NCBI GenBank assembly: GCA_963693055.1
Contig: OY843751.1
Location: 4,640,001-4,704,000, forward strand
DNA: 64,000 nucleotides
Reading direction: 5' to 3'
Source: a bacterium
GTDB lineage: Bacteria; Zhuqueibacterota; Zhuqueibacteria; Residuimicrobiales; Krinioviventaceae
The notes below the pieces were generated by a model. It did not search any database and was not told the DNA's origin. It saw only the letters and a program-made list of their open reading frames with translations. Position numbers and translations under genes: made by a program. Shown in pieces: positions 28,896-48,870 of this stretch (position 1 is its first letter; each line of letters opens with the position of its first letter).

Positions 28896-30227
28896 CACTA
28901 CTGTCCCAATATTAGTTGAATAAATTCAATTGGTTATCATTTTGTAAGCCATGAGTAAGATTATCATTGTTGCTAAGTAACTGTAAAATAGGAGTTCTTT
29001 GAAACATATTAACGCTTAATATTTGTAAAAAAGTGTAGAGCGGAATCGCAATATTCAAACGTTTCTTTATTATCGCTATAAGCACGTATATACATATTGC
29101 AATCCATATTTGCGATTTAACGGCATTGACTGAAGTGCCATAAAAGGACTTAATTTTTAGGTTTTGTTTTATCCATTTAAAAAACAATTCAATTTGCCAG
29201 CGGCATCTATATAGTTCAGGAATAGTTAATGCCGGCAAGTTAAAAATATTTGTCAACAAAACGAGCGTTCGTTTTTGATCAGTTATGTATATTTTAACGC
29301 GTCTGAGTCTTTCAGGATAATCTCGTGATGCATAGTAATTCACTAAAGAAACTGTTTGATCACATCGAAGACCTGTACTTTTATTAACCGGATGTGAATA
29401 GACCCTTTTAGCTTTAAGGTTCGACTTTGCCGGAATGACAAAAAAGGCTCCAGCTTGATGGAATCTATACAGACGCTCAAAATCTATGTAACCCTTGTCT
29501 AGCAAATATATGGCGCCAGGCTCAGGAATCAACATATCAAGAATGTTAACATCGTGGATTTTCCCTTCAGTTATCTCTATAAAAGTTGGTATGTTACCAC
29601 GAAGGTCCATTTGAGTATGCACTTTTATAGCACCTTTTGATTTTCTAAATCTGGCCCATGGAAATAAAGAAAGGCACAAGTCAATTGTTGTTGAATCTAA
29701 TGCGTAAACCATTTCTTTTAATTCAAGGCCGAATTTTTCATCACGATATAACTTGCGGGCCTGATTAATAAGTATTTGAGCAAATTCAGCATAGATGCGC
29801 CAGTCTCGATGTTCATTTGCATTAGCCAAAGTATTTCGAGCAACTATGCTGCGAAAACCCATGTGGTAAAGTAGTTTTCGTTGTGATCTTAAACAAGCTT
29901 CTATATCTCTCAAACTATCTCGGAAAGTGAGTTGGGCAAAAGCCATGCAATAAAATTGATCAAGACACGAGAAGGATTTAACTTTATACTCTCCTCTGTA
30001 TTTGTGGACGCAACGATGGAATGCCTTTAAAGGCAGGAATTCCATTATTTGAGAAAAAACAGTTTTCCCTTCGTGCATTTCGCCATTCCTCCGCCATTGT
30101 TTTGTTGTGATAGAATGGTGAAATGTAATAATTTAATTCAAATCGTTCCCGTTAAAAATGATAGCGTAAAGATATAATTAACAATTAAATACAATCACTA
30201 CTTTTCCCTAACGTTGGGACAGTAGTG
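28896..30227 (-). mobile_element. Complete IS4-family insertion sequence (1332 bp) with 9-bp TSD GATTGAATA
   Basis: Terminal IRs cactactgtcccaatattag and ctaacgttgggacagtagtg (18/20 match); TSD at 28887-28895 and 30228-30236. Confidence 0.95.
28912..30078 (-). CDS. IS4-family DDE transposase (DUF4372 + DDE_Tnp_1)
   Basis: LDSTTIDL, DKGY and YRCRWQIELFFKWIKQ (YREK signature). Confidence 0.95.
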   Translation of the reverse strand: MHEGKTVFSQIMEFLPLKAFHRCVHKYRGEYKVKSFSCLDQFYCMAFAQLTFRDSLRDIEACLRSQRKLLYHMGFRSIVARNTLANANEHRDWRIYAEFAQILINQARKLYRDEKFGLELKEMVYALDSTTIDLCLSLFPWARFRKSKGAIKVHTQMDLRGNIPTFIEITEGKIHDVNILDMLIPEPGAIYLLDKGYIDFERLYRFHQAGAFFVIPAKSNLKAKRVYSHPVNKSTGLRCDQTVSLVNYYASRDYPERLRRVKIYITDQKRTLVLLTNIFNLPALTIPELYRCRWQIELFFKWIKQNLKIKSFYGTSVNAVKSQIWIAICIYVLIAIIKKRLNIAIPLYTFLQILSVNMFQRTPILQLLSNNDNLTHGLQNDNQLNLFN

Positions 30228-36222: not shown

Positions 36223-37392
36223 TTATTTATTCCCTTTTGCTCTATTGTGCGTTTTACATAACATTTGACAGTTATTAATATCTGTTGCTCCGCCTTTACT
36301 CCACGCTGTGACATGGTCTGCATCCATTTCACTGAGTTTCCAAATTTTTGTTTTGTTAGAGTCGTGTCCAATTGCACATAAAGGACAGTTCGAAATACTA
36401 TCTTCTTCTGCTTCTGATGTTTGTTTCTTATAAATAGTTTTTTTTGTAGCCTCGTCAAAAACTCTAACTTCTAAAAGCTTTGTATCTGTTGAGCCACCAA
36501 GTATATATTCAAAGACCCCTTTCCGATTCTTAATATAAGGGTCTCCATAAAGTTCATTTACCTGCTCTGACACTTTTTTAGCATTATACGATTTTTTGTG
36601 GTATTCTTCATAAAGACGACCCCATTCAAGCCCTTTCATTTCAGATTCAACGTCTGTAAATACAGTTGAAACCCAGTCAATAACGCAATTGAAATATGTT
36701 TTTAGTTCATTAATATTGGTATCATGACGATGACGGCTCATATATCCCCCAATATTACCTTTGCTTACCCAATCAAATGCACGTTCCAAAAAATCTTGAC
36801 GGTTAGCACTGCCTTTTATATATGCACTCCATTTTTGAATGTTAGCGTTTTGAGAATTACTAAATTCCTCTTTTGCCAAAGTAACAAATTGACCAGAATA
36901 AACAGCATTTAGCAATTCTTGATTGCTTAGCGGAACCCCTGCAATATTGATTGTTTTAAACCATTCTTTAATCTCACTTTCAGTTCCCTCGCACTCATAG
37001 ATAAGAAGTTTTGTATCTAAAATCTTATTCTTTTTATCTACTGCAAAACCACCGAATAATTGTTCATTACCGTTTTCATCTTTGATAGCAAATTTATTTG
37101 TAACGAAACGGCCAAAACTTGTAATGCGTTGTTGGCCATCAAGAACCTCCAATTTATCATCACTAACTTTATTAAAATATATCAATCCAATAGGATAACC
37201 TTTCAGTATTGACTCAATAACGGCAATCTCCCTTTTACCACCATCGGAAGCATAAATGTAATTTCTTTGATATTCAGGTTGTATAGTTAGTTTTCCCGCA
37301 AGTCCAAATAATCCTTTACCTTCAAGTTCATTATAGACAAAGCCTTCACAAATATCTTTTACTGTAATGTCCGTTATTAATGTCGTTATCAT
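36223..37392 (-). CDS. DUF262 (ParB-like/GmrS-type) + C-terminal HNH endonuclease
   Basis: PEYQRNY, LDGQQR, FKTIN.AG.PL; DADHVTAWSKGG...NCQMLCKTHNRAK. Confidence 0.9.
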   Translation of the reverse strand: MITTLITDITVKDICEGFVYNELEGKGLFGLAGKLTIQPEYQRNYIYASDGGKREIAVIESILKGYPIGLIYFNKVSDDKLEVLDGQQRITSFGRFVTNKFAIKDENGNEQLFGGFAVDKKNKILDTKLLIYECEGTESEIKEWFKTINIAGVPLSNQELLNAVYSGQFVTLAKEEFSNSQNANIQKWSAYIKGSANRQDFLERAFDWVSKGNIGGYMSRHRHDTNINELKTYFNCVIDWVSTVFTDVESEMKGLEWGRLYEEYHKKSYNAKKVSEQVNELYGDPYIKNRKGVFEYILGGSTDTKLLEVRVFDEATKKTIYKKQTSEAEEDSISNCPLCAIGHDSNKTKIWKLSEMDADHVTAWSKGGATDINNCQMLCKTHNRAKGNK

Positions 37393-37396
37393 TTGC

Positions 37397-38524
37397 TTAC
37401 CTTTTCTTTATAAAAATTCGCTTGTATACTTTTTTGTTTTTTACATAGGGCTCGTTATGCTTCTTAAAATGTGGTAATTTATATTTTTCATCAACAACAC
37501 CGTTATCACTTGCACCAATTATTTCAAACTGTTCAGGATTGTATTTGTCTAAGAAAGTAATGGGTACACCCATCACACCGTCATAATCACTTGGTATAGC
37601 ATCTGTATAAGGAACCTCAATTGCATCATAATTATCATATTTTGTATACTCTTTTCCTTTAATATTCTTATGGGAGCTAAACCTAATATTATCATTCATA
37701 GTCATCAAAGGTAGTGGTTGGTGTCTTTTGCCGTGGTCTAAATTAGTGAACCAGAGACAATTGTTTGTAGCTACAATTCTATTTCCATCTTCATCAATAC
37801 GAGCTTCTGTTCCAAATAACTCGTATGTTTCCGGCACAATAAAACCAGAAATCCAGCGCCCCATTCCAGTTCCAAGCCACATCTTATTTTCTTTAATCAA
37901 AGGGAATACTTCTTTATATGTAATGGCATTAATATTTGCAATAATTAAAAATTTCTTCTCATATTCGACAAGTTGCCTTATATACTGGCGAAAAAGACTA
38001 AATGGTGGATTGGTAACTACAATATCGGATTGTTTCAATAATGATATAGCTTCATCACTTCGAAAATCACCATCCCCATTTAAAGGTGTCCATTCATTTT
38101 GCTTATTATGTTTTAACTGCAATGCTACATCTTTCAAGCTAAATTCGCCATCGCCATCAATATCCCCAACTGAATTAATTATAAATCTATTGGCTGTTAT
38201 CTTCGGACGTCCTTTTACTTTTATAAGGGTCGAGTCATCGCCAAATAATTTAATTTGCGTATTGGCAATAGGTGAAGGCTTATAACTGGTTGTAATAAGC
38301 TGTTTTAAACCAATTCGCTTAAAGTTTAAAACGAAATATCTAAAAAAATTACTTTCAAATGGATCATCACAGTTACAATAAACAACTTTACTTCGAAATA
38401 CATCAGGATTAAATTCAAGATAAGCTTCAATCTCTTTTTGGATATCATTATACTGTGTATAAAATTCATCACTTTTAGATCTTTTAGCTTTATGTAGTAA
38501 TTTGTTCGTTGCATTTCTTGCCAT
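37397..38524 (-). CDS. Adenine-specific DNA methyltransferase, M.EcoRI family
   Basis: DEFYT, YCNCDDP, GDFRS, VTNPPFSLF, MGVPITFLDKYNPEQF. Confidence 0.9.
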   Translation of the reverse strand: MARNATNKLLHKAKRSKSDEFYTQYNDIQKEIEAYLEFNPDVFRSKVVYCNCDDPFESNFFRYFVLNFKRIGLKQLITTSYKPSPIANTQIKLFGDDSTLIKVKGRPKITANRFIINSVGDIDGDGEFSLKDVALQLKHNKQNEWTPLNGDGDFRSDEAISLLKQSDIVVTNPPFSLFRQYIRQLVEYEKKFLIIANINAITYKEVFPLIKENKMWLGTGMGRWISGFIVPETYELFGTEARIDEDGNRIVATNNCLWFTNLDHGKRHQPLPLMTMNDNIRFSSHKNIKGKEYTKYDNYDAIEVPYTDAIPSDYDGVMGVPITFLDKYNPEQFEIIGASDNGVVDEKYKLPHFKKHNEPYVKNKKVYKRIFIKKR

Positions 38525-41224: not shown

Positions 41225-42925
41225 TCATTGTTTTCTTTGCTCATCTTTGATTCGCTCAATCATTTGTTTTCCATTTTCATTATCAGAATTCAATTCAATG
41301 GATTTCTTGTAATATAGCAATGAAAGATCATAGCGCCTGGTGTTATAAAAATATTCCGCATAACTATCCCAAACATTAAACGCATTCGGAAAAATCAATG
41401 TATTAACTTTGAAAACAGATCCTGCTCTTTCCAAATCACCTTTTTGCATCAAAACATAGCCTGCATTATTTATACTCTTTTCAAGCACCTTTTGATCAAA
41501 AATAGTAGACCACTCATAGTTTTTATATTTATCCTTCAAATGATGATAATACTCTAAAGCCGCACTGGCACCATTATCCGCTGCATAATCCGGAACGGAA
41601 ACCAACTCTGTACCATCAATAACCAATTCTAAAGCAGGATCATTACCCGAAAAGTAATCCTTACTTGAAAATGGAGCGGGAACATTGGGTTGAAAATATA
41701 TCGTTTGTGATGACCATGCATTATCTATTTGTCTCGATGCAATACCCAATCCGAACCCACTGTTAGGAAGATTTCCGACAAATTTCATATCACTAAAAAA
41801 ATTAAAAGGAGATGCCGAAGGCTCACCTATAAAAACAGCATTTGTATGTACTGCTAATTCGGTCATTAATATTACTGCTGCACTATATGTCCGATTACCA
41901 ATAAACACAAACACATTTTCTTTACCATTCAATTTATCTCTTTTAATAATTTGATTTATAAATGGTATTAACAGCCGACCATTCCCACCATCATTATAAC
42001 GTATATCCAGCACAAGTTTATCAATCTCATTTTCATGTAGATCAAAGTATGACCAAAAACGCTCAGAGAATTGAAAAAATGTTTCATTATTACCCGGTTG
42101 GTTAGCAACTTGGTTCAGTTGAAAATAAATAATTTTTTCATCAGACAAATGTTCAAACCAATAAAATTTCACATTCTTGTCTTGTTTTCTTAAATGAAGG
42201 GGAGTTGCTTTACCTAGAATTGTAGCCGCATGAACATATTCTCCCTCTGTAGGCCCCATATTTAACCTGTTAGACCAGGTGATTTTGCTGTTATCATGTA
42301 TTGATTTTAATGTAAGACTTTTTCGTTCACCATCTCTTGTCATTAAATCCAAACGTATTCTTTCTAAATTATCTCCTAATCCTAATCCATTCAATACTCT
42401 GGCAAATGTAATTCCCCGAAGCGCCGGACTTTTCCTACCGAACTTGGAATCCAAATTCGTAACACTTTCAAGAACAGACGTCACCTCTTCTATAGATTGG
42501 CCATTCACATTAATAACACGGGAACCCAAATATTGCTCATGTTCTTTATCGATGACTGTTATAAAAACACCATCTGAAAAATGGGCCAACCTAAAAGGGA
42601 ACCTTAAATCAGTTAAATCTAAAAACCCTTGATCAAAAAGTTGTGTATGCCCATCTTGAATGCTTGCAATAACTTTTTTAATTGAATAAAAAGCCCCCAA
42701 ATCCGATTCTGCAGCTTTTATTTCATTCACAGCCTGTTCAACAATAGAATTAAAATCATCTCGGGTTACTCTATAATATAGATTAGGATGATGTAATTTC
42801 AGATTTGATACTACAAAATCAAGATCATTTAACCACTGCTCAGTTGTAAATGCTTTTCCTGTTGTTGCAAAAACCTGAGATATAATACCAAAAACAAGAA
42901 TCAAAGAAATTTTCAAGATCTTCAT
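41225..42925 (-). CDS. Secreted S41-family peptidase-like protein with C-terminal TPR
   Basis: HPN, DGHT, LVLDIRYNDGG, RTYSAA (putative catalytic Ser), IGEP, DPALE; C-terminal FPNAFNVWDSYAE TPR. Confidence 0.75.
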   Translation of the reverse strand: MKILKISLILVFGIISQVFATTGKAFTTEQWLNDLDFVVSNLKLHHPNLYYRVTRDDFNSIVEQAVNEIKAAESDLGAFYSIKKVIASIQDGHTQLFDQGFLDLTDLRFPFRLAHFSDGVFITVIDKEHEQYLGSRVINVNGQSIEEVTSVLESVTNLDSKFGRKSPALRGITFARVLNGLGLGDNLERIRLDLMTRDGERKSLTLKSIHDNSKITWSNRLNMGPTEGEYVHAATILGKATPLHLRKQDKNVKFYWFEHLSDEKIIYFQLNQVANQPGNNETFFQFSERFWSYFDLHENEIDKLVLDIRYNDGGNGRLLIPFINQIIKRDKLNGKENVFVFIGNRTYSAAVILMTELAVHTNAVFIGEPSASPFNFFSDMKFVGNLPNSGFGLGIASRQIDNAWSSQTIYFQPNVPAPFSSKDYFSGNDPALELVIDGTELVSVPDYAADNGASAALEYYHHLKDKYKNYEWSTIFDQKVLEKSINNAGYVLMQKGDLERAGSVFKVNTLIFPNAFNVWDSYAEYFYNTRRYDLSLLYYKKSIELNSDNENGKQMIERIKDEQRKQ

Positions 42926-43197
42926 AATTAACAACCTAAACTTTATTTACACAAAATAAATTCAACCTGGTTAGTAAAAGAAATCCGGTGTATTAGTATA
43001 TTACTTTTTCAGTATTAAGACAATCTTTTTTAGGTAAAATTCACTACAATTGCTTGATCTAAATCAAATCAGTATATAATAATAAAATCCATTTACCAGA
43101 TCAGCTAATACTCACATTTGTGGAGATTTACTATCCCTGTTTGAATAGTGTCTCTCCTTAATCCAATTTAACAAAATTAATAAAAAATATTGGATCG

Positions 43198-43872
43198 TCA
43201 AAACCGGTAGCTCAACAAATCCATTTTAACGCCAGGGCCACCACAGGAATCACGGAAATAACCCACCTGGCCTATAGACACACTTTTCTCTGATTTGACG
43301 GGACCCAGATTGTAGGCAAGCATTGAAAATGCAGTTGGCAAGACATATGTTAAAACGACTCCCAAATTAGAATCTGCGGTTTCAAGCGCTACCATAGCAA
43401 TACCGGTCCCCAAAACAGAGCCGCCCAACGCCCATAGAAACGATCTGTTTTTCTTTGCAATCAATCCTGTAACATGTACGCCACCCGCTATTCCCAACGC
43501 GTAACCTGCAAAAACCGTAAGAAACAATCCTCCCACATCTGTATCCCGATTATTGATAAACTGATTGCCATCAATTGCCAATCCCGCTGCTACACCCAGG
43601 GCTCCCCCCAATTCTGCCATTAGTAACTGCACCACGTAATAGTCGGTTTCATATACAGGCTGCTTCATATCAGACAACCGCAAAGCATTCATCGAAACAC
43701 CCGGTTCTGAATTATACCGAAAAGTATTCATACGCATGTCGTTCTGAAGAGCATTGGAACGGGAAAAAAGATGATGACCGGATGAATTGTTTTGAATTTG
43801 TGCAGAGACTAACGAGCTGATCATAAACAGCAACACCAACATCACTTGTCCAAAAACTATTTCTTTTCTCAT
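43198..43872 (-). CDS. Array paralog 7: exported glycine-zipper protein
   Basis: Signal peptide, GxxxG helices, tail GQVGYFRDSCGGPGVKMDLLSYRF. Confidence 0.85.
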   Translation of the reverse strand: MRKEIVFGQVMLVLLFMISSLVSAQIQNNSSGHHLFSRSNALQNDMRMNTFRYNSEPGVSMNALRLSDMKQPVYETDYYVVQLLMAELGGALGVAAGLAIDGNQFINNRDTDVGGLFLTVFAGYALGIAGGVHVTGLIAKKNRSFLWALGGSVLGTGIAMVALETADSNLGVVLTYVLPTAFSMLAYNLGPVKSEKSVSIGQVGYFRDSCGGPGVKMDLLSYRF

Positions 43873-43895
43873 AACTTATTCCCTCACAAAAAACA

Positions 43896-44606
43896 TTAAA
43901 ACCGATAGTTTAACAAATCCATTTTAACACCAAGGCCGCCGCAGGCATCTTGATAATAGCCAAGCTGTCCCACAGAGATTTCTTTTTTACTTCTGTTATA
44001 ATCTAAATTCGAACTTGAATTATAATAGAGCATTGAAATAGCAGGCGGTAAACCAAATGCCGCAATGAATCCCATAGCGTTCGAATCAAAATCACCTCCC
44101 AGTGAAGCGAGGGTTAATCCAATTCCCGCACCTACTCCAAACATTGTTCCAACCAAAGCACGCCAATAGGAACCATCATCAATTCTATCTTTACCAACCT
44201 TATTCACACCTATTGGTACAGCAAAAAGATATCCAACATAAGCACCCACAATGGAATAACCCAATGCTTCCAAACCACCATCTCCAGCTAGCCCTAAAAC
44301 TAAAAAACCGGTACCTCCAGCAAGTATACCCAGCGCACCACAAACTTGAGACGTAATGAATTGCTCCACATAATAATCAACAGTTAAATTATGATTCTCA
44401 AACGTCTTTGAGCTATTCAATGGATTAGAGTTCAAGTTAGTACAATATCGATCCAAATGAAATGTATTTCCTCCCTGGTAATTATAGGGAATTAACCTTA
44501 CAGAAGGATCACCGCACTCGGCAGACTCTTTCCCCAATAATGTTGCACTCGTGTTCAATAATAAACAAAACATTACAATCCTAAAACCATAATAATCCAT
44601 ATCCAC
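43896..44606 (-). CDS. Array paralog 6: exported glycine-zipper protein
   Basis: LIPYNYQG motif, GxxxG helices, tail GQLGYYQDACGGLGVKMDLLNYRF. Confidence 0.85.
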   Translation of the reverse strand: MDMDYYGFRIVMFCLLLNTSATLLGKESAECGDPSVRLIPYNYQGGNTFHLDRYCTNLNSNPLNSSKTFENHNLTVDYYVEQFITSQVCGALGILAGGTGFLVLGLAGDGGLEALGYSIVGAYVGYLFAVPIGVNKVGKDRIDDGSYWRALVGTMFGVGAGIGLTLASLGGDFDSNAMGFIAAFGLPPAISMLYYNSSSNLDYNRSKKEISVGQLGYYQDACGGLGVKMDLLNYRF

Positions 44607-44712
44607 CTCTCAAAATAACCGTATCCACATGTATTCATCTAACTTTTTTGTTTTCCCAAAATTATCGGGCTACCCTTTTCAAAAATTGATCATCCCTCCA
44701 AAAGTAACCAGA

Positions 44713-45408
44713 TCAAAACCTGTAACTCAACAAATCCATTTTAACACCGAGGCCTCCGCAGGCATCCTGATAATAGCCAAGCTGTCCCACAGAGATTTCT
44801 GGGGAATGATCAGTCTCTTTCAACTCTTTGTGATCTTGGGGTTTTGTTTTTTTATTATACATAGCCATTGAACAAATTGGGGGTAACAAAAAACCAGCTG
44901 TGATACTCAAAGTTGAATTACCGGGATTTGAATCCGTTTCCAATGCTAAAACACCAATTGCTATTGCTGTGCCTAATAGGGAACCCAACAATGCACGTTT
45001 GTAAGATCCGTTTTGCCCAAATGCTTCACCTATACCATATGATCCCAATGAAACTCCCATAGCAAACCCTGCATAAGTAGACAGCACTCCTCCGGCCATC
45101 GAACCGTCAAGAATATTAAAACCTATTAATGCTCCTGCAAATAAACCCAAACACCCCGATACTTCGGCTATAATAAATTGTCCAGCCAAATAATAACCAT
45201 CATAAAAATCTATATTTGTTGCTACAGCAGATTCACGATCATTTAATTGTGGAGATTGATATTGACACAGATTTACCGACCTCTCACCCTGATAATTGTA
45301 TGGTACCAACCGGGGAGTGTTATCGGATTTGCTTTCGGGTTCCTGTGCGTAAACCGTAAAAGAGAATGCCGTGCAGATAGTGACAAGAAACAAAAAGCGG
45401 TTTTTCAA
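44713..45408 (-). CDS. Array paralog 5: exported glycine-zipper protein
   Basis: AAGGAG RBS + TTG; LVPYNYQG; tail GQLGYYQDACGGLGVKMDLLSYRF. Confidence 0.85.
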   Translation of the reverse strand: MKNRFLFLVTICTAFSFTVYAQEPESKSDNTPRLVPYNYQGERSVNLCQYQSPQLNDRESAVATNIDFYDGYYLAGQFIIAEVSGCLGLFAGALIGFNILDGSMAGGVLSTYAGFAMGVSLGSYGIGEAFGQNGSYKRALLGSLLGTAIAIGVLALETDSNPGNSTLSITAGFLLPPICSMAMYNKKTKPQDHKELKETDHSPEISVGQLGYYQDACGGLGVKMDLLSYRF

Positions 45409-45647
45409 AATATGTCTCCTTGATAGAATTATAACCCAAACAGGAATTTCCCCATGCGTTTTTTATTTTAGTTTTTTAATCTGTAATGTATGTATGTACG
45501 AATGGATATGCTCAATGTTCCATTTTGAAACCGCGCAAATCCTGCTAAAGGCCGGGAGTACTTTTGAGAGTTCAACACTAGAAAAAAACAGCATTCAATC
45601 CTATCATCCTTAAATCCTATGAATCATAATTCAGACAGGTAACCAGA
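45409..45647. repeat. 239-bp intergenic direct repeat, copy A
   Basis: 8 mismatches by manual alignment versus 46356-46594; similarity extends into both flanking gene ends. Confidence 0.92.
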
Positions 45648-46355
45648 TCAAAACCTGTAACTCAACACATCCATTTTAACACCGAGGCCTCCGCAGGCAT
45701 CCTGATAATAGCCAAGCTGCCCCACAGTGATTTCAGGGGATAAATCAGTCTCTTTGAATTTATTGGGATATTTGGGTTTAAATTTTCTGTTATAATTTAT
45801 CATGGAACAGATTGTGGGCATAAGAAGCAATGCAGGACCTGTAAATACCGGAGTCTTGCTGTCTTTTTCTATTGCTGCTATGGTCATTCCTATACATGCC
45901 CCAAATAAAGAACCTTTCAGTGCTCGCCAATATGTACCATTTTGTACCTGTTTATAACCTGTTCCGTGTACTCCAAAAGCAACCCCTAATGTATACGACG
46001 TATACCCCACAACGATTGCAGCAGCAAGTCCATCCCATCCCTCTCTCCTGAACAAAGCTGGCCCCACGAGTACACCGGTTGTCATCCCAAGCCCACCTAC
46101 AAACTCTGCCATTAAAAATTGTTTAACAAAATATCCGACCGTAGCGCCTTGACCGGTTTCTGATAAAGGTTCGACAGAACCCTGTAAATTCAATGGACCG
46201 GGATTACACCAATACAAGTTGACAGTACTTTTGCCATGAAAATTATACGGAACCAGCCGGGGAGTATTATCGAATTTGCTTTCGGGTTCCTGTGCGTAAA
46301 CCGTAAAAGAAAATACCATACCAATACTAAGAAGAAACAACAAACTGTTTTTCAA
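45648..46355 (-). CDS. Array paralog 4: exported glycine-zipper protein
   Basis: AAGGAG RBS + TTG; LVPYNFHG; tail GQLGYYQDACGGLGVKMDVLSYRF. Confidence 0.85.
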   Translation of the reverse strand: MKNSLLFLLSIGMVFSFTVYAQEPESKFDNTPRLVPYNFHGKSTVNLYWCNPGPLNLQGSVEPLSETGQGATVGYFVKQFLMAEFVGGLGMTTGVLVGPALFRREGWDGLAAAIVVGYTSYTLGVAFGVHGTGYKQVQNGTYWRALKGSLFGACIGMTIAAIEKDSKTPVFTGPALLLMPTICSMINYNRKFKPKYPNKFKETDLSPEITVGQLGYYQDACGGLGVKMDVLSYRF

Positions 46356-46594
46356 AATATATCTCCTTAATAGATTTATAACCCAAACAGGAATTTCCCC
46401 ATGCGTTTTTTATTTTAATTTTTTAATCTGTAATGTATGTATGTACGAATGGATATGATCAATGTTCCATTTTGAAACCGCGCAAATCCTGCTAAAGGCC
46501 GGGAGTACTTTTGAGAGTTCAACACTAGAAAAAAACAGCATTCAATCCTATCATCCTTAAATCCTATAAATCATAATTCAGACAGGAAACCACA
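46356..46594. repeat. 239-bp intergenic direct repeat, copy B
   Basis: Offset 947 bp from copy A. Confidence 0.92.
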
Positions 46595-47290
46595 TCAAAA
46601 CCTGCAACTCAACAAATCAATCTTAACGCCAGGGCCGCCGCATGCATCCTGATAATACCCAAGCTGCCCTGTAGATATTTCTGGTCCATGGGATTTAGTG
46701 TTGCCTTTATTATATAATATCATTGAAAGCGGAATCGGCAGTAGAAACGTCAATGCCGCCCCCACATTGGCTACTTCTGAACCTTGGCCCGCGATAATGG
46801 CGCCCAGCCCAATACTGGTTCCAATTGCAGATCCCATCAAGGCGCGTAAAAACGGCAAATCCTTATTATTGATGATACCAACCACATGCACACCTGTTGC
46901 AACTCCCAGAGCATATCCCGCATAAGCAAATCCAACCAGCTTTACAAAATCACTGCCTTCTTCATCATCACTGAATTCAACCCCGCTAAAGTTCACTCCT
47001 GCTGCTGTCCCCAACGCTCCCCCCAATCCTGCTATTAAAAACTGTGATATTAAATACCCGCCTTCTGGTGGTTTGCTATTTTTTACGGATATATTATCTG
47101 AATAACTGAATAAAATCGAATTCGCATGATACCGGTTTAAATCCACTCCCATATCCTTTTGCTGAATAAAGGGAATAATTCGGGCTGCATTTTCAAATGT
47201 AATACCTAAACCCGGATCGGTCGCATACACTGCCTGCGCAAATAAAAGACATACCATTAACACACTGCTAAAGCCTAATTTTTTTTTCAT
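46595..47290 (-). CDS. Array paralog 3: exported glycine-zipper protein
   Basis: Signal peptide, GxxxG helices, tail GQLGYYQDACGGPGVKIDLLSCRF. Confidence 0.85.
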   Translation of the reverse strand: MKKKLGFSSVLMVCLLFAQAVYATDPGLGITFENAARIIPFIQQKDMGVDLNRYHANSILFSYSDNISVKNSKPPEGGYLISQFLIAGLGGALGTAAGVNFSGVEFSDDEEGSDFVKLVGFAYAGYALGVATGVHVVGIINNKDLPFLRALMGSAIGTSIGLGAIIAGQGSEVANVGAALTFLLPIPLSMILYNKGNTKSHGPEISTGQLGYYQDACGGPGVKIDLLSCRF

Positions 47291-47377
47291 TCAAGCACCC
47301 CATTCCAGTTTGTAAACCCGGATTTATCCCCGGGAACCTAAAAAAATTCTATACCGATTACAAAGCAATTCCGACTA

Positions 47378-48073
47378 TTAAAATCTACAACTCAATAAAT
47401 TCATTTTAACGCCTGGTCCGCCACATGCATCCTGATAGCATCCAAACTGACCGGCAGATATTTCCACAGGACTGGTTTTATTCGCACTTGCAACAGAATC
47501 TCGTTTATTATAAAGCATTATGGAACATACAGGTGGCAGCAAAACAAGAGACGAAAGACTAATTACGGCCTGGGGCTTGTTATTATCCAATTGAGAGGCA
47601 ATGGCTATTGCCAATCCTGCTCCAATCAAAGACCCTTTTAGCGCCTTACCAAAAGAACTGGAGACATTTGCATAACTCCCAACCTTGTGCACACCAAAAG
47701 CCGAACCCAAGGCATACCCGGCATAAGCACCGATCACGACAAATTCAATACCATCCATGTCTTCACTTTGGCCATCAACAAAAGGTATGCCGCAAATTCC
47801 CCCAACAAAGGACATGACTATACCATCAATTTCTGCAGACACAAATTGTTTAATATGCAATTTCGAATTTATTTTTTTTTGTTCTTTTTGATTAAATTTG
47901 GATAATGCACTTGCAGAGTCCTGTCCGGTATTCATACTATAGAGAACAGATTTATTCTCACCGCTGCTACAAAAAGATACCGGGAATAATTTCTCAACAG
48001 CCAGGATTTTTGAGGCAAACAACAGTATAAAAATCAACAAAAAACTTGAATGTATTAACCGAATGTTCAACAT
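47378..48073 (-). CDS. Array paralog 2: exported glycine-zipper protein
   Basis: GAGGGG RBS favours ATG 48073; tail GQFGCYQDACGGPGVKMNLLSCRF. Confidence 0.85.
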   Translation of the reverse strand: MLNIRLIHSSFLLIFILLFASKILAVEKLFPVSFCSSGENKSVLYSMNTGQDSASALSKFNQKEQKKINSKLHIKQFVSAEIDGIVMSFVGGICGIPFVDGQSEDMDGIEFVVIGAYAGYALGSAFGVHKVGSYANVSSSFGKALKGSLIGAGLAIAIASQLDNNKPQAVISLSSLVLLPPVCSIMLYNKRDSVASANKTSPVEISAGQFGCYQDACGGPGVKMNLLSCRF

Positions 48074-48114
48074 TTCCCCTCTCAAATATTAATAATCGCA
48101 ATAGACAATCAGCT

Positions 48115-48870
48115 CTAAAATTGCCAGCTAAAAACATTCACATTTACAACATTACCCCTCTTTTCATCATGAGAATAGTTGAACGCATTCAGGGATAATC
48201 CTACATTCCCGCCATCAATGCTCACAACCGAATCCAGATAATTCATATGGTTGGTAATATTATAACTTGCTATAGCGCCTATGGTTGGCAAAAAAAGTGT
48301 CAAGACCGAAATACGTCCCTCATCATTAAATTCTTCATCACTATCATCATAAGCATTTTCAATCATTATTCCTATCCCTGTTCCAATTACCGCGCTGGTC
48401 AACGTCCACCAAAACGATCCGTCTCTGTCCGCCTTTTCACCGACCCTATACACACCATCCACAACCCCATATGTATAACCAGCGGATATAACATAATATC
48501 CGGTATCAGACAAATCCCAATCATTCCCCAATTGTGCAGCATATACAACCAGGGCACTTGCAAGCAGACACATTAGCCCTTCGGTTTCTGCCATTAGAAA
48601 CTGTAAACCATAATATTGAATTGAATTAAAAACACTGAGATCCTGGGCCCTGTATCCATCAGACACTGAATTGAGCTTAACATAGTCCAGACTATAGGTT
48701 TCATTACCCTGATAGTTAAAAGGAACCAAAACCGGACCATCGTCAATAGTCTTAATTTGACGGGTCATTGCAAATGTGTTTTTATTACTCTGTAAAAGGT
48801 CTTGCGCAAAAACCATTGAACAAAAAATCAGTGTTACTAAAACCCCGGCCCGTATTGATCTGAGATACAT
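48115..48870 (-). CDS. Array paralog 1 (most divergent): exported glycine-zipper protein
   Basis: LVPFNYQG, QFLMAE, GSFWW and LP...YN motifs shared with the family; different tail NVVNVNVFSWQF. Confidence 0.8.
   Translation of the reverse strand: MYLRSIRAGVLVTLIFCSMVFAQDLLQSNKNTFAMTRQIKTIDDGPVLVPFNYQGNETYSLDYVKLNSVSDGYRAQDLSVFNSIQYYGLQFLMAETEGLMCLLASALVVYAAQLGNDWDLSDTGYYVISAGYTYGVVDGVYRVGEKADRDGSFWWTLTSAVIGTGIGIMIENAYDDSDEEFNDEGRISVLTLFLPTIGAIASYNITNHMNYLDSVVSIDGGNVGLSLNAFNYSHDEKRGNVVNVNVFSWQF

Follow-up and report, generated by a model that had tools for sequence, protein, structure and literature searches.

The 64,000-nucleotide window analysed here (contig OY843751.1 of a bacterium of the Krinioviventaceae, positions 4,640,001 to 4,704,000) contains a tandem array of seven intact, co-oriented paralogous genes on the minus strand at positions 43198–48870, running from a1 (43198) to a7 (48115) and encoding proteins of 224–251 amino acids (aa). 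An original prediction made from the DNA letters had counted seven co-oriented genes of this size, and all seven were recovered as minus-strand open reading frames (ORFs) (Table 1). The a1 protein aligns with the other array proteins over their length at 26–41% identity. In a six-frame search of the 6.5-Mb source genome with a seven-protein profile, all seven scored E < 1e-75 and unrelated ORFs E ≥ 0.1; the same search recovered three dispersed paralogues beyond the array. The main pieces of contigs from runs X1 and X3 are letter-identical to the window and break at the repeats, and these runs may be the source data. The array is flanked by genes for GH106, GH31, an S41 peptidase and an aldo-keto reductase; neither immunity nor type I secretion genes were found in the flanks, and promoter and terminator counts were at chance (20 vs. 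19.0 and 5 vs. 5.4, respectively).

Table 1. Features of the array and its immediate surroundings (coordinates are window positions)
Feature	Position	Strand	Description
a7	48115..48870	-	First array gene; longer divergent tail, near the family-wide tail type
a6	47378..48085	-	Paralogue; mature N-terminal segment replaced relative to orthologue b6
a5	46595..47290	-	Paralogue
Constant block 1	46214..46681	-	a5 tail, 239-bp spacer and a4 leader
Breakpoints of extra sister-genome gene bX	46229-46505		In leader part of constant block 1
a4	45648..46355	-	Paralogue; tail differs at 3/84 nt from a3 and at 14/84 nt from its own orthologue
Constant block 2	45267..45734	-	a4 tail, 239-bp spacer (97% identical to block 1 spacer) and a3 leader
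a3	44713..45408	-	Paralogue behind the deep AlphaFold2 model: four helices, beta-strands in last 28 residues
817-bp tail-to-tail cassette	43909..44725	-	Most of a2 (gene 43896-44606); absent from the sister genome
a1	43198..43872	-	Last array gene
~97-bp tail repeat, six copies	43191..47467	-	Starts at 43191, 43889, 44706, 45641, 46588 and 47371; encodes 28-aa predicted beta-hairpin tail
S41 peptidase/TPR (tetratricopeptide repeat) gene	41225..42934	-	Directly downstream, co-oriented; absent from the sister genome, hence not a fixed part

Each array protein begins with a basic, hydrophobic, signal-peptide-like stretch without a lipobox, as judged by eye and a hydrophobicity rule rather than by a dedicated predictor. 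Such starts are present in all seven proteins, in agreement with the earlier proposal of an exported family, and export by Sec is likely. The start is followed by a low-confidence segment of ~50 aa (predicted local distance difference test score, pLDDT, about 50) with no folded passenger. This segment holds the LVPYNYQG-like motif that had been described as frequent; it is clear in a2, a3, a4 and a7 but weak in a5 and a6 and absent from a1. An AlphaFold2 (AF2) model of a3, built on a 141-sequence alignment, predicts four helices (block pLDDT 82–98; predicted template modelling score 0.64). The helices are Gly-rich (16% vs. 8% in polytopic controls), with 4–7 GxxxG motifs per array protein. Their median Kyte–Doolittle hydrophobicity is 1.54 vs. 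1.95 in the controls, with overlap, the controls being helices of polytopic inner-membrane proteins that were themselves picked by hydrophobicity.

In the C-terminal tail, AF2 places strands at mature positions 183–185, 189–193, 199–203 and 207–209, which form one long bulged hairpin; with only these four short strand segments, a single chain does not make a complete barrel. The last strand alternates and closes in Phe, following the pattern L-x-(V/Y)-x-F. The beta-signal of E. coli is given as GXX(aromatic)X(aromatic) in the available text of PMC13067283. Among the array C-termini, position –3 is aromatic in 5/7 and position –6 is Gly in 0/7, while Phe occupies position –1 in 7/7, in line with the expectation of a beta-signal-like end with a terminal aromatic residue. 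The tail had also been called near-invariant in six proteins. It is indeed shared by a1–a6, but at 64–96% identity only, and a7 carries a divergent tail that is homologous too (21–32%). A tail Cys that had been thought conserved proved not to be so family-wide, any Cys in the last 25 residues being found in 28/130 homologues from outside the arrays.

Word-index searches reached only 5 and 10 homologous proteins, and a full hidden Markov model (HMM) scan was needed, which returned 686 clusters at E ≤ 0.001; the members examined came from the best 150 of these. The family alignment comprised 141 sequences, 11 of them from the two arrays and the other 130 from homologues elsewhere; the longer proteins with fusions or duplications were left out. 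Its consensus is Gly-rich (G...GY..G...GVY..G, GSF..TL.GS..G...G and P..GA.I.FN). Ninety-nine of the aligned members are tailed, 35 end right behind helix 4 and 7 end otherwise. Within the tailed class, which was defined by an F/W/Y/L end, Phe is found at –1 in 79%, and positions –3, –5, –6 and –8 are hydrophobic in 87–100%. The tail of the array proteins can be aligned with that of the family, and a tail profile picks up both a7 and the dispersed paralogue at 698481. By contrast with this recurrence inside the family, the tail HMM found no unrelated protein with the tail among 7,193 C-termini of the source genome, so that a portable tail is not shown within that genome. A phylum survey, which scored at most 18 candidates per genome and included many fragmented genomes, gave family matches in 30/167 genomes. 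The 28 matching genomes outside this genus carry 1–2 matches each, and the tandem array was seen only in the source genome (G000) and a sister genome (G001). Gene neighbours at 18 singleton homologue loci are variable and often exported-looking. The ESM Atlas returned unnamed clusters, found most often in Aminicenantota, Ignavibacteriota and Myxococcota, at a weak recognition score (2042, below the guide value of 2300).

Searches against known families gave no assignment, and the description of the family as undescribed was upheld, with no Pfam, NCBIfam, PHROG, PADLOC, PDB or fold match over threshold. Pfam and NCBIfam yielded nothing at cut-off for the seven array proteins, and NCBIfam no model above cut-off for 44 homologues; 0/13 proteins matched PADLOC or PHROGs. 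Sequence searches of the PDB gave 0 matches for a1 and a best E of 0.28 for a3. Fold searches, which barely probed the tail, returned no Foldseek match at E ≤ 0.001 and no VIA match at Z ≥ 8, the best VIA scores (7.3 and 7.2) being background for helical bundles. Pattern scans found no relative in metagenome and viral contigs and only the sister genome's locus in genome contigs, and no family match was found in phages and plasmids. No description of such a family was found in the full-text literature, most subscription journals lying outside the search. The family comprises undescribed, widespread helical envelope proteins, of which the array is a genus-level tandem expansion.

Comparison of the array between the source and sister genomes, which belong to the same genus, shows turnover of whole genes. 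The sister locus also has seven genes, of which six are orthologues (among them b3–b6 for a3–a6); a2 is absent, and an extra gene, bX, is an ancient paralogue lying between the a5 and a4 orthologues. The original prediction had named array size variation as a check, and gene content does differ between these two genomes. BLASTN blocks overlap exactly in repeats: the breaks of the a2 indel fall within the tail repeat, and those of the bX indel within the spacer-leader repeat. At the 3′ end of b3, informative sites change from a3-type to a2-type within the tail, which fits deletion of the 817-bp tail-to-tail cassette. The same 817-bp skip is present in runs X4 and X5, which need not be independent of the sister genome.

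The shared ends also differ from the gene bodies in their history. Core trees pair every orthologue at 99–100 support, whereas the tail DNA tree is mostly unresolved. The paralogues a3 and a4 differ at 156/318 core bases but at only 3 bases of the tail, while the orthologues a4 and b4 differ at 7/333 core bases but at 14 of the 84 tail bases (Fisher p=2e-6); for a5/b5 the contrast is less marked (p=0.02), and for a3/b3 it does not reach significance (p=0.08). The 239-bp spacers of the two constant blocks, which are non-coding, are 97% identical within the source genome and 87% identical to the orthologous spacer of the sister genome. These comparisons indicate that tails and non-coding spacers are homogenised by gene conversion, from which the constancy of the tail partly arises. 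Recombination among these shared ends is the likely cause both of tail homogenisation and of the gain or loss of entire gene cassettes, and we hold this reading of the array's dynamics with high confidence, even though the direction of the indel is supported for a2 only and not for bX. In a paralogue array, a "constant domain" can therefore arise from gene conversion rather than from selection alone. Intragenomic recombination between outer-membrane protein (OMP) paralogues is reportedly also seen at babA/babB of Helicobacter pylori (PMC3444412). Recombining paralogues of this kind have shared ends and a variable middle. The present array differs in consisting of adjacent tandem cassettes in an uncultured-type bacterium, and in encoding helical proteins whose cores are under purifying selection.

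Ratios of nonsynonymous to synonymous substitution (dN/dS) were estimated from six orthologue pairs of the two genomes, as averages that could hide single sites. They are 0.17 for the helices and 0.21 for loops 1 and 3; loop 2 and the tail have 0.11. Within the mature protein the N-terminus changes fastest (0.31), the signal peptide stands at 0.53, and two flanking enzymes give 0.05 and 0.10. Orthologous helices are 95% identical (431/456) and orthologous loops are 92% identical (140/152 residues), whereas loops of paralogues average 13% identity. The loop diversity thus appears old and maintained, with no ongoing arms race, and the variable specificity first envisaged, in the sense of a kin or phage arms race, finds no support in the purifying values of 0.11–0.21 in loops, helices and tail. 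Selection appears to act on the tail too, because the a1 and a6 tails are still 64% identical despite a synonymous difference of 0.87, albeit over few sites. The proposal of constant assembly signals covers the case only in part, since gene conversion homogenises the tails and even the spacers.

The charge distribution bears on where these proteins reside. Tailed members have acidic loops 1 and 3 (mean net charge –1.8 and –1.1; net negative in 82% and 67% of the 99 sequences) and basic flanks (+0.9 before helix 1 and +1.4 after helix 4). Inner-membrane proteins follow the positive-inside rule. Inner-membrane insertion with a cleaved signal peptide would place the acidic loops 1 and 3 in the cytoplasm and invert that rule. 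The lower hydrophobicity of the helices relative to polytopic controls likewise speaks against the inner membrane. We consider an outer-membrane location probable and an oligomeric state slightly favoured, while a channel function is conceivable at somewhat less than an even chance. BamA was found in the host over cut-off, as was CtpA/Prc, the latter in both genomes.

A precedent for such a protein is Borrelia P13. According to PMC6879480 and PMC5758756, P13 is a porin-active homo-oligomer of ~300 kDa, predicted to be helical; CtpA cuts off its last 28 residues. By inspection, P13/BBA01 (PF05628) resembles the array proteins in its signal peptide, short N-terminal segment, Gly-rich hydrophobic helices and aromatic-ended, hairpin-like tail. 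Both are paralogous families, and the helical outer-membrane oligomer described for P13 (PMC6879480, as far as its text is available) is what we infer for the array. The array proteins differ in having four helices, in their length (224–251 vs. 161 aa) and in being encoded by a chromosomal tandem array. PF05628 gave 0 matches at E ≤ 1 in the source genome, and hhalign of a3 against BBA01 gave a probability of 1.1% over 10 columns; the two groups appear to share a layout with no detectable homology. Tentatively, we favour the view that the array proteins assemble in the outer membrane as helical oligomers of the P13 kind, which most likely act as channels. The family is not a member of any family tested, and most likely works like the known helical outer-membrane oligomers.

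Under this model, the signal peptide would be cleaved and the moderately hydrophobic helices would escape stop-transfer. The amphipathic hairpin ending L-x-(V/Y)-x-F would then target the chain to the beta-barrel assembly machinery (BAM), after which it might either join a multi-subunit barrel or be trimmed as in P13. Subunits would pack through their GxxxG faces to form a ring in which both termini lie on one face and the acidic loops 1 and 3 on the other, and the long-diverged loops would give each paralogue a stable, distinct solute or surface preference.

Several observations weigh against such an oligomer. The hhalign result above is one, and the array ends match the beta-signal defined in E. 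coli only in part, given the absence of Gly at –6. The acidic, outward-placed loops contradict the positive-outside rule that beta-barrel OMPs follow (PMC13067283, available text). Of the control inner-membrane helices, 21% are less hydrophobic than the array median. The tail is missing from 35/141 homologues and from 2/3 dispersed paralogues of the source genome, some homologues, such as P0085 and P0089, have no signal peptide, and two proteins have a duplicated core without an evident signal peptide; the core must then also work without the tail. The S41 peptidase beside the array is missing from the sister genome, and its candidacy as a dedicated partner was rejected on that ground.

Among other explanations, structural or stress-guard rings of the SlyB/YfgH type, in which glycine zippers encircle lipid domains or OMPs and conduct nothing, are unlikely, though less so than the rest. 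SlyB forms ring-shaped transmembrane oligomers (PMC13067283), and the same is predicted for YfgH (bioRxiv 10.64898/2025.12.22.696046); SlyB and YfgH (PF05433) and TraT are Gly-rich helical hairpins of the outer membrane that build rings or helical barrels. Purifying selection is compatible with such a role, and 4/141 family members match PF05433 at E ≤ 0.01, albeit below cut-off (best E 0.00048, 20 bits vs. 24.2), with 0/7 window proteins above it; TraT was listed by Foldseek only at E=1.4. However, SlyB, YfgH and TraT are lipoproteins, whereas the array signal peptides have no lipobox Cys and are followed by four helices rather than two, that is by two hairpins, and by a beta tail. A patchy family with seven divergent copies in one array would also be unexpected for a generic guard. 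It is doubtful, in turn, that helices and tail serve as a membrane anchor or display module holding an N-terminal passenger at the envelope, one that in array members would be short and disordered. Domains do precede the core in homologues: among 63 scanned, six are SNase-like (P0045, P0051, P0055, P0069, P0073 and P0128), one has tetratricopeptide repeats and one is YcdB/C. The SNase-like domain of P0073 looks degenerate, its catalytic Arg35 and Glu43 positions reading Lys and Asn, and the N-terminus evolves fastest among the mature parts. Array members nevertheless have no folded passenger, yet their cores and loops are individually conserved.

More doubtful still is that these are ordinary four-helix inner-membrane proteins with a periplasmic tail acting as a soluble interaction hairpin. 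The tail-less and signal-less homologues would suit this, as would the overlap in helix hydrophobicity and the top structural rows, which are inner-membrane helical bundles at non-significant Z (≤7.2). It is at odds with the charge asymmetry, inverted for an N-out topology, and with the terminal Phe and alternating pattern kept across tailed members. We regard as improbable the original suggestion that the proteins are pore toxins acting by contact, or that they interact with kin or phage and diversify in an arms race. Glycine zippers do kill in the Cdz system, whose toxins of about 85 aa are encoded beside type I secretion and immunity genes (PMC5380434, available text). Like the Cdz bacteriocins, the array combines glycine-zipper helices with several related genes side by side; its paralogous loops are highly divergent, whole cassettes come and go, and a variable hotspot with a restriction-modification pair is found nearby. 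The array proteins, however, have a Sec-type leader and are about three times larger; purifying selection on their orthologous loops, together with the absence of flanking immunity and type I secretion genes, makes an arms race unlikely. PADLOC, PHROGs, phages and plasmids gave no match, and relatives carry only 1–2 matches each.

An extension of the favoured outer-membrane oligomer, speculative and rather unlikely as a whole, is that a short Phe-ended beta-hairpin could be a general BAM ticket for alpha-helical bundles, with several hairpins closing one shared barrel. On this view, the family would represent an unrecognised and widespread class of channels built from helices in the outer membrane. 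The array would be a combinatorial hetero-oligomer, with gene conversion keeping the shared assembly interface of its members compatible. Few integral outer-membrane proteins are helical, and for SlyB the mode of insertion is described as unknown in PMC13067283. With at least 686 clusters and natural tailed and tail-less forms, the family makes it possible to test directly whether a C-terminal hairpin on its own directs helical proteins through BAM.

Other loci contain proteins of comparable appearance. In the source genome, three tandem paralogues (L050:2633-5625; G000:C1:5094633-5097625) each have a signal peptide and a Gly-rich helical hairpin similar to that of the array, and their C-terminal domain is beta-rich; they end in ...GRF(I)(F/I/L), have no Pfam match and match the family profile weakly (E 6e-6 to 2e-4). 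By eye, the C-terminal domain looks like an outer-membrane barrel, which counts in favour of the outer-membrane reading. One dispersed tail-less paralogue (G000:C1:53428-53985) is interrupted by an early in-frame stop, and its sister-genome orthologue is intact. Directly behind another (L051; G000:C1:5167740-5168875) comes a gene resembling a small beta-barrel OMP, and the pair is kept in the sister genome. Beside singleton homologues, L034:2224-2925 and L035:281-1156 encode further signal-peptide-bearing helical proteins with aromatic-ended, beta-like tails, which may be P13/DUF5683-like and PAP2-like.

Elsewhere in the window, positions 36223-38524 hold a GmrSD_N/HNH endonuclease and an EcoRI-type adenine methyltransferase in a low-GC stretch; the sister genome has different genes between the same flanks, marking this region as a variable hotspot. 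A transposase-like ORF at 28912-30078 may be IS4-like. Within both homogenised spacers lies a ~45-bp AATCCT-rich element (45592-45637 and 46539-46586) that ends in AATTCAGACA and recurs at 17–18 other sites in the genome.

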